Part shown: piece after piece, positions 35,139-35,217 of the stretch
How the letters are laid out: every line of letters starts with the position of its first letter
Numbering within the stretch: position 1 is the first letter of the stretch
NCBI RefSeq assembly: GCF_003334385.1
Contig: NZ_QOWN01000034.1
Direction: 5' to 3' (one strand)
Length of the DNA stretch: 47,554 bases
DNA from: Escherichia coli
Lineage (GTDB): Bacteria; Pseudomonadota; Gammaproteobacteria; Enterobacterales; Enterobacteriaceae
Notes under the pieces: generated by a model
Told to the model about the DNA's origin: nothing
Seen by the model: the letters and a program-made list of their open reading frames with translations, nothing else
Databases searched by the model: none
Position numbers and translations under genes: made by a program

Positions 35139-35217
35139 TGTTTTATCCTTATCAACATGTTTTCACCCTCTCCCTGTGGGAGAGGGCCGGGGTGAGGGCA
35201 TCAAGCCGCACCCATTA

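Follow-up and report, generated by a model that had tools for sequence, protein, structure and literature searches.

The hairpin between deoB and deoD of Escherichia coli is, by its sequence, a copy of the BoxC (PIT/TM_ECO type B) repeat and one of two alternative spacer alleles

In the stretch of Escherichia coli DNA analysed here (47,554 nucleotides, called the window below), a strong GC-rich palindrome lies inside the deo operon, between deoB and deoD. What is this element, and does it act on the deo mRNA? A first-pass annotation had read it as a signal of this locus, possibly an mRNA stabiliser or processing site, or a partial intra-operon terminator setting the deoB:deoD ratio. The operon is read from the minus strand, and the parts of the junction are the following (window positions):

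35218–36441, minus strand: deoB (phosphopentomutase), the upstream cistron, with its stop codon at 35218–35220
34419–35138, minus strand: deoD (purine nucleoside phosphorylase), the downstream cistron, with its start codon at 35136–35138
35139–35217, minus strand: deoB-deoD intercistronic spacer, BoxC-type allele, 79 bp, defined by the ORF coordinates and the sequence
35158–35211, no strand assigned: full BoxC repeat unit of ~54 bp, its limits being the extent of similarity to the K-12 type-B copies
35166–35199, plus strand: 34-nt triplex-motif core of TM_ECO type B, CCCTCTCCC-TGT-GGGAGAGGG-CCG-GGGGTGAGGGC
35166–35174, plus strand: CCCTCTCCC block
35175–35177, plus strand: TGT loop
35178–35186, plus strand: GGGAGAGGG block
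35187–35199, plus strand: CCGGGGTGAGGGC block, i.e. CCG (35187–35189) followed by GGGGTGAGGGC (35190–35199)
35166–35186, no strand assigned: Watson–Crick hairpin with a perfect 9-bp stem and a 3-nt loop, 10 bp in the mRNA when a flanking G-U/G-C pair is included

The spacer is made up of 6 nt past the deoB stop codon, the 54-bp BoxC unit and 19 nt that contain the deoD Shine–Dalgarno sequence. The hairpin begins 31 nt past the deoB stop and lies 28–48 nt from the deoD ATG, with the G-rich block extending to 61 nt, in agreement with the distance of 30–70 bp upstream of deoD first assigned to it. The letters quoted at that time were correct and in the right place, but they were those of the plus strand, while deo is transcribed from the minus strand. 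Because the operon is read from the minus strand, the deo mRNA carries the C-rich complement in reversed order, GCCCUCACCCCGG, CCCUCUCCC-ACA-GGGAGAGGG, then UGAAAACA; the G-rich sense of the core is that of the plus strand, i.e. the deo template strand. Written in the sense of the deo mRNA, the complete unit reads GTGCGGCTTGAT GCCCTCACCCCGG CCCTCTCCC ACA GGGAGAGGG TGAAAACA.

Within the window, the palindrome and its adjacent block each give a single match even when three mismatches are allowed, for an expectation of 0.00 in shuffled sequences (n = 100), and a pattern scan at up to three mismatches found no further BoxC copy in these 47.5 kb. Rfam 15 has no family matching the spacer element at the gathering threshold, and a permissive search of the region returned only chance-level hits (mir-320 at 18.6 bits for a gathering score of 55.5, and snoRNAs). 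Elsewhere in the window, Rfam recognises REP-derived naRNA4 (nucleoid-associated RNA) units, seven of them in one array on the minus strand with ~101-bp spacing (41403–42087) and two single ones (23894–23971, plus strand; 28289–28367, minus strand). The threonine operon leader (15157–15276, minus strand), the tpke11 sRNA (1300–1377, minus strand) and the ES036 sRNA (9832–9874, plus strand) are also matched at gathering level, from which we place the window, reversed relative to K-12, as spanning deo to thr over the origin of the K-12 coordinates. A candidate CyaR sRNA at 34305–34391 (plus strand) was rejected, as it scores 21 bits for a gathering score of 47 and corresponds to the stem of the deo operon terminator (34360–34387, minus strand).

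By its sequence, the hairpin is a copy of the dispersed repeat BoxC. Holder et al (NAR 2015; PMC4666352) list in their Table 1 the 23 copies in K-12 MG1655 of a "triplex motif", TM_ECO, which they equate with the BoxC repeat of the 1990s (Bachellier/Hofnung) and the PIT element (Hoyne & Maher, 2000, 2002). All 34 nt of window positions 35166–35199 match TM_ECO nos. 1 and 4 of that table without a difference, both copies being of type B (CCCTCTCCCTGTGGGAGAGGGCCGGGGTGAGGGC). The family core is composed of CCCTC(T/G)CCC(C), a loop, (G)GGGAGAGGG, a second loop and GGGTGAGGG, all of which are present in the window copy; the second loop, TTA in type A and CCG in type B (PMC4666352), is CCG here. The stem is almost invariant among BoxC copies. 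We delimited the unit from copies extracted at eight K-12 loci, using the coordinates of Holder et al on NC_000913.3. Beyond the core, the flanks GTGCG(C/G)GCTGAT and (A/T)GAAAAC match those of the hrpB-mrcB and ilvC-ppiC copies, and those of xynR-argF less well; at hrpB-mrcB, the blastn alignment of the core runs past the 34-nt motif. Among the matches listed, the part on the GTGCG(C/G)GCTGAT side also recurs in the BoxC copies of five other genera.

The same conclusion follows from the genomic distribution of the sequence. Searched by blastn against 5426 complete E. coli genomes, the 79-nt spacer is matched at 27,501 places, six in the median genome, and is therefore a dispersed repeat; a 47-nt core query behaves likewise, with a maximum of 13–14 places per genome. 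BoxC copy number varies between 1 and 29 across 56 E. coli strains (Holder et al, PMC4666352). The copy at this very junction is already catalogued, as row 123 of Table S8 in PMC4666352 (NC_010468, strain ATCC 8739, 4021997–4022030). With deoD beginning at 4021969 and deoB ending at 4022049 in ATCC 8739, the offset between BoxC and deoD is 27 nt, as in the window. The element is thus a copy of a dispersed repeat, and the idea of a signal specific to this locus did not hold. The family, the exact sequence and the deoB-deoD copy itself were already known from publication; BoxC goes unmentioned in the Delihas review. What is added here is that two spacer alleles divide 5426 genomes nearly 50:50, that the alternative allele is terminator-like, that both spacer types also occur in other species, and that three repeat families make use of this spacer.

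Compared with BoxC/PIT/TM_ECO type B, the deo copy has the identical 34-nt core, the three-block layout, the CCG second loop and the ~54-bp unit; it belongs to a multi-copy family, is itself intergenic as judged from the ORF coordinates, and shows no difference of sequence. It adds only context, being inside an operon, 6 nt past the deoB stop, dimorphic within the species and found across genera. Across the family, BoxC copies favour no orientation, no distance to genes and no gene function (PMC4666352). We know of no cognate transposase or binding protein for BoxC. With REP/BIME (PU) elements, BoxC shares a short, GC-rich, palindromic, dispersed and intergenic character, and REP units also occupy the deoB-deoD spacer elsewhere (see below). 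The consensus sequences are nevertheless unrelated: BoxC lacks arms of the GCCGGATG / CATCCGGC type, and REP lacks the third G-rich block of BoxC. The arms of the 35–40-nt REP palindrome (GCC(G/T)GATGCG...CATC(C/A)GGC type) are absent from the window spacer and the naRNA4 matches lie elsewhere in the window, so that the early view of this hairpin as not a REP-type unit was right. ERIC/IRU repeats, ~127 bp long, are likewise enterobacterial and intergenic, and ERIC-like sequence is met in the deoB-deoD spacer of three Citrobacter; ERIC differs from BoxC in sequence and forms a long imperfect palindrome. In K-12, the type-B BoxC copy between ilvC and ppiC (locus L129, 460–492) lies directly past the ilvC stop, oriented with respect to ilvC as the deo copy is with respect to deoB, and is followed by a separate terminator hairpin, an arrangement that parallels the deo copy.

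We then compared the junction between E. coli strains. The BoxC-type spacer (79 bp) is present in 2490 of the 5426 complete genomes (~46%; blastn, at least 80% coverage) and the unrelated K-12-type spacer (56 bp) in 2934 (~54%). The two counts are complementary in number, adding up to 5424 of 5426. The K-12 allele is located as follows, on the extracted K-12 locus (L001):

L001, 1428–1483: deoB-deoD spacer of K-12 MG1655, 56 bp, TGGATTTGGGCGGAGCGTTGACTCCGCCTTTGTTATGTCACAAAAAGGATAAAACA
L001, 1435–1456: hairpin within this spacer

K-12 thus has no BoxC at deoB-deoD, and its spacer is unrelated to that of the window from the TGAT after deoB to the shared AAGGATAAAACA before deoD. In the flanking genes, 22 of 1224 nt of deoB distinguish the window from K-12, none of them in the last 61 nt, as do 10 of 720 nt of deoD, none in the first 353 nt. 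We rejected an origin of the K-12 spacer by deletion from the BoxC spacer, the two having in common just a short GGG(T)GCGG similarity past the stop codon. We saw the BoxC type in NCTC9967, E. coli C, BLR(DE3), ATCC 8739, ETEC6, ST95-32 and APEC 102026, and the K-12 type in MG1655 and O157:H7, with a variant of it in MS 200-1. The common variant of the BoxC type, as in ETEC6, changes the loop only (ACA to TCA). Note that the DeoB (WP_000816460.1) and DeoD (WP_000224879.1) proteins of MS 200-1 are the same as those of APEC 102026, although the two strains have opposite spacer types, indicating that the spacer type is uncoupled from the alleles of the flanking genes.

Some BoxC-poor genomes keep the copy at deo. 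B2 strains such as CFT073, APEC O1 and S88 have one or two BoxC copies in total (Holder supplement, PMC4666352), and in APEC 102026 blastn finds two places, one of which is the deoB-deoD copy. The BoxC-poor genomes that we compared were APEC 102026, ST95-32 and GN4738; a genome with a single copy retains the one at alx-sstT instead.

Outside the species, we scanned species-representative genomes with a degenerate deoD-start pattern, which gave at least 120 loci and 115 usable spacers, from a sample without E. fergusonii, E. marmotae and E. ruysiae; all that follows applies to the matches listed. Six non-E. coli species have BoxC at the identical site and oriented alike, namely Pseudocitrobacter faecalis, Enterobacter cloacae, an Enterobacter MAG, Leclercia, strain RIT691 and Phytobacter; in each BoxC genus sampled, it is the C-rich strand that appears in the mRNA. 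The E. cloacae spacer holds 1.5 BoxC copies and that of Leclercia a BoxC plus a REP unit. Between Pseudocitrobacter and the window, the spacer is ~91% identical by our own count and the adjoining coding sequence ~88%; this orthology at gene-like divergence indicates that the BoxC copy is old. The K-12-type spacer is found in E. albertii and in a second Escherichia representative. Both E. coli alleles thus have counterparts outside the species, which may reflect either an old polymorphism or repeated exchange between species. A similar GGGCGGG...CCCGCCC hairpin is present at the matching position in Kosakonia cowanii and Enterobacter sp. Bisph1.

Other repeats fill the same spacer among the matches listed, namely REP units in Salmonella, several Citrobacter, Klebsiella and some Enterobacter. 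The spacers of Citrobacter werkmanii, C. youngae and Citrobacter sp. FP75 are presumably ERIC-like, as judged from the ERIC consensus. Repeat-bearing spacers were those of loci L004, L015 and L079 (Citrobacter), L111 (Salmonella), L101, L083, L118, L075, L093, L031 and L048. Note that our REP-like regular expression matches the GGCCTGATGCC part of BoxC as well, which makes joint "BoxC,REP-like" labels artefacts. Among the matches listed, the minimum free energy of the spacer is at or below −15 kcal/mol in 83 of 115 species and its z-score below −2 in 75 of 115, indicating that a stable stem-loop after deoB is the usual state and is provided by interchangeable sequences. It is also dispensable, as ~17 of the species listed have short unstructured spacers (26–47 nt in Pantoea, Erwinia and Pectobacterium). 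Overall, the deoB-deoD junction is a hot spot, a recurrent home for interchangeable structured elements (BoxC, REP, ERIC-like).

What would this copy do in the deo mRNA? RNA folding, proposed early on as a check of the hairpin, gives for the spacer in mRNA sense −32.1 kcal/mol with z = −3.5, one of 200 shuffles being equally good, and for the opposite strand z = −3.1. The core hairpin in isolation, in mRNA sense, reaches −18.8 kcal/mol. A strong hairpin inside the operon is thus confirmed, by the fold as by the uniqueness of the palindrome in the window. Two further features bear on the RNA:

35190–35213, minus strand: weaker upstream helix, predicted in both the MFE and the centroid structure
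35146–35150, minus strand: deoD Shine–Dalgarno sequence AAGGA, 7 nt 5′ of the ATG and 15 nt 3′ of the hairpin

In the predicted upstream helix, GGGUG (35213–35209) pairs with CACCC (35194–35190) around a small CGG/CCG helix; it recruits the C-rich third block of the motif, and its left arm lies partly beyond the repeat unit. The Shine–Dalgarno stretch is common to both spacer alleles, with a predicted mean probability of being unpaired of 0.82 in the BoxC allele versus 0.55 in the K-12 allele. The BoxC structure is thus predicted to leave the deoD ribosome-binding site open. The Salmonella sRNA GlnZ represses deoD through its first three codons, and this site is synonymously changed in E. coli (PMC9731577), so that it has no bearing on the deoB-deoD spacer.

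A partial terminator within the operon, as had been suggested, is a matter of what follows the stem. After the BoxC stem the mRNA continues with UGAAAACAUGUUGAU / UGAAAACA, in which there is no U-tract, and neither the consensus scan nor a second scan with the identical rule calls a terminator-like site at BoxC; the consensus scan calls no promoter-like site in the spacer region either. The scan does call one after deoD:

34360–34387, minus strand: terminator-like site of the deo operon, made of a 12-bp stem and the tail TTTAGTATCT

Without a U-tract, the BoxC hairpin should not terminate transcription. In earlier tests by Hoyne & Maher, as cited in PMC4666352, PIT elements showed neither promoter nor terminator activity. 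It is the K-12 spacer that has an 8-bp GC stem followed by a T-run, GGGCGGAGCGTTGACTCCGCCT + TTGTTATGTC, and that the consensus scan classes as terminator-like, so that the idea of a partial terminator fits the K-12 allele better than the BoxC allele. A hairpin with a T-run is found at the deoB-deoD junction in 23 of 115 spacers among the matches listed; together with K-12, this makes attenuation a plausible ancestral feature of the junction. Our literature search found no report on deoB/deoD terminators, Term-seq or transcript 3′ ends for E. coli at this junction; note that transcript-end maps derive from K-12, which has no BoxC there.

We consider it highly probable that the hairpin is one type-B BoxC copy filling most of the spacer, one of two old alternative alleles, tolerated and non-terminating. 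The deo mRNA would carry its C-rich strand, folding into a 9–10-bp GC hairpin just 3′ of deoB which, having no U-tract, would not terminate and would leave the deoD ribosome-binding site free. In this position, the copy would be a tolerated repeat that plays the structural part of the stable stem-loop usually present after deoB. By analogy with REP, it would be no more than a passive barrier to 3′–5′ exonucleases for the upstream deoCAB message, rather than a dedicated regulator. REP is known as an intercistronic mRNA stabiliser from malE-malF, and an effect of BoxC on RNA, possible through such a barrier to mRNA decay, could plausibly be alike.

A rival reading gives the hairpin a selected function, as a stabiliser or processing boundary that shields deoCAB and tunes the deoB:deoD ratio, like REP in malE-malF. 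At −18.8 kcal/mol the hairpin, 31 nt past the deoB stop, is very stable; most of the sampled species among the matches listed have strongly structured spacers of unrelated sequence, the z-scores below −2 in 75 of 115 being compatible with stabilisation or processing. Its orientation is uniform in all six other BoxC-bearing species listed, the E. coli variants are confined to the loop, and the copy is retained in genomes with one or two BoxC copies in total. These last two points could mean that the copy is selected and not merely tolerated, and they count against our preferred explanation. However, 54% of E. coli genomes have no BoxC here, ~17 of the species listed do with short unstructured spacers, the uniform orientation across genera may reflect common descent of the whole spacer, and the family shows neither orientation or position bias nor regulatory activity in published tests (PMC4666352). 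We therefore regard selected stabilisation as possible but doubtful. A related reading takes the two alleles as an old cross-species dimorphism between functionally different RNA structures, a leaky terminator-like hairpin (K-12, O157:H7, E. albertii) versus a non-terminating BoxC hairpin (E. coli C, B, ATCC 8739, ST95, Pseudocitrobacter, Enterobacter), which we judge quite improbable. If selection keeps both, they would differ in DeoB:DeoD ratio and BoxC would be a repeat recruited as an RNA element. More speculatively, BoxC could act as a pH-sensitive barrier to RNA decay, with GCCCUCACCCCGGCCCUCUCCCACAGGGAGAGGGU as the candidate triplex RNA: the C-rich strand carried by the mRNA in every BoxC genus listed is, according to work cited in PMC4666352, the sole orientation that chemically allows an RNA triple helix (pyrimidine motif, favoured by acid).

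Three further explanations assign to the element other kinds of activity. As a partial intrinsic terminator or attenuator, it would lower the transcription of deoD relative to deoB. A GC-rich stem-loop between cistrons is indeed what such attenuators look like, the hairpin is strong in the nascent RNA, and terminator-like hairpins occur here in 23 of 115 species listed and in the K-12 allele; but with UGAAAACAUGUUGAU in place of a U-run after the stem, no call in either scan, and PIT/BoxC elements without terminator activity in the tests cited in PMC4666352, this role of the BoxC allele is without support and very unlikely. At the DNA level, a transient triplex or hairpin stalling replication or repair could make the junction a rearrangement hot spot that yields the two alleles (the model of Holder et al). 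The isolated G-rich strand does form a stable intrastrand purine-motif triplex in vitro, as seen by CD and NMR, TM loci vary more between strains than control intergenic regions (PMC4666352), and this locus is polymorphic for the presence of BoxC. Yet neither work on duplex DNA nor DMS footprinting in vivo revealed a stable triplex (PMC4666352), and the locus shows two clean haplotypes (5424/5426) instead of a spectrum of deletions, both of them common to other species, with no excess divergence in the flanks and a K-12 spacer that is not a deletion derivative of the BoxC one; we find this origin improbable. Least of all do we expect a MITE-like transposable element recently inserted in the spacer. 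Such an element would be short, palindromic, intergenic and multi-copy, as BoxC is, with 1 to 29 copies between strains. The alleles, though, differ by a replacement of 43 nt by 66 nt and not by a clean insertion, a target-site duplication is absent, apart from the internal stem no terminal inverted repeats are present, Pseudocitrobacter has an orthologous spacer that has diverged about as much as the genes beside it, and Holder et al (PMC4666352) found no association with mobile elements. A recent insertion is thus extremely unlikely.

The tolerated, non-terminating BoxC copy remains our preferred reading, which makes it for now a matter of annotation. RefSeq records carry no BoxC annotation, and a known repeat thus looks like a striking "regulatory" hairpin. 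The K-12 laboratory strain differs from the B and C strains in this spacer, so that the expression of deoD relative to deoB may differ between them. More generally, the deoB-deoD spacer offers a handy natural test bed for asking whether BoxC, REP and ERIC-like repeats are interchangeable as RNA stem-loops.
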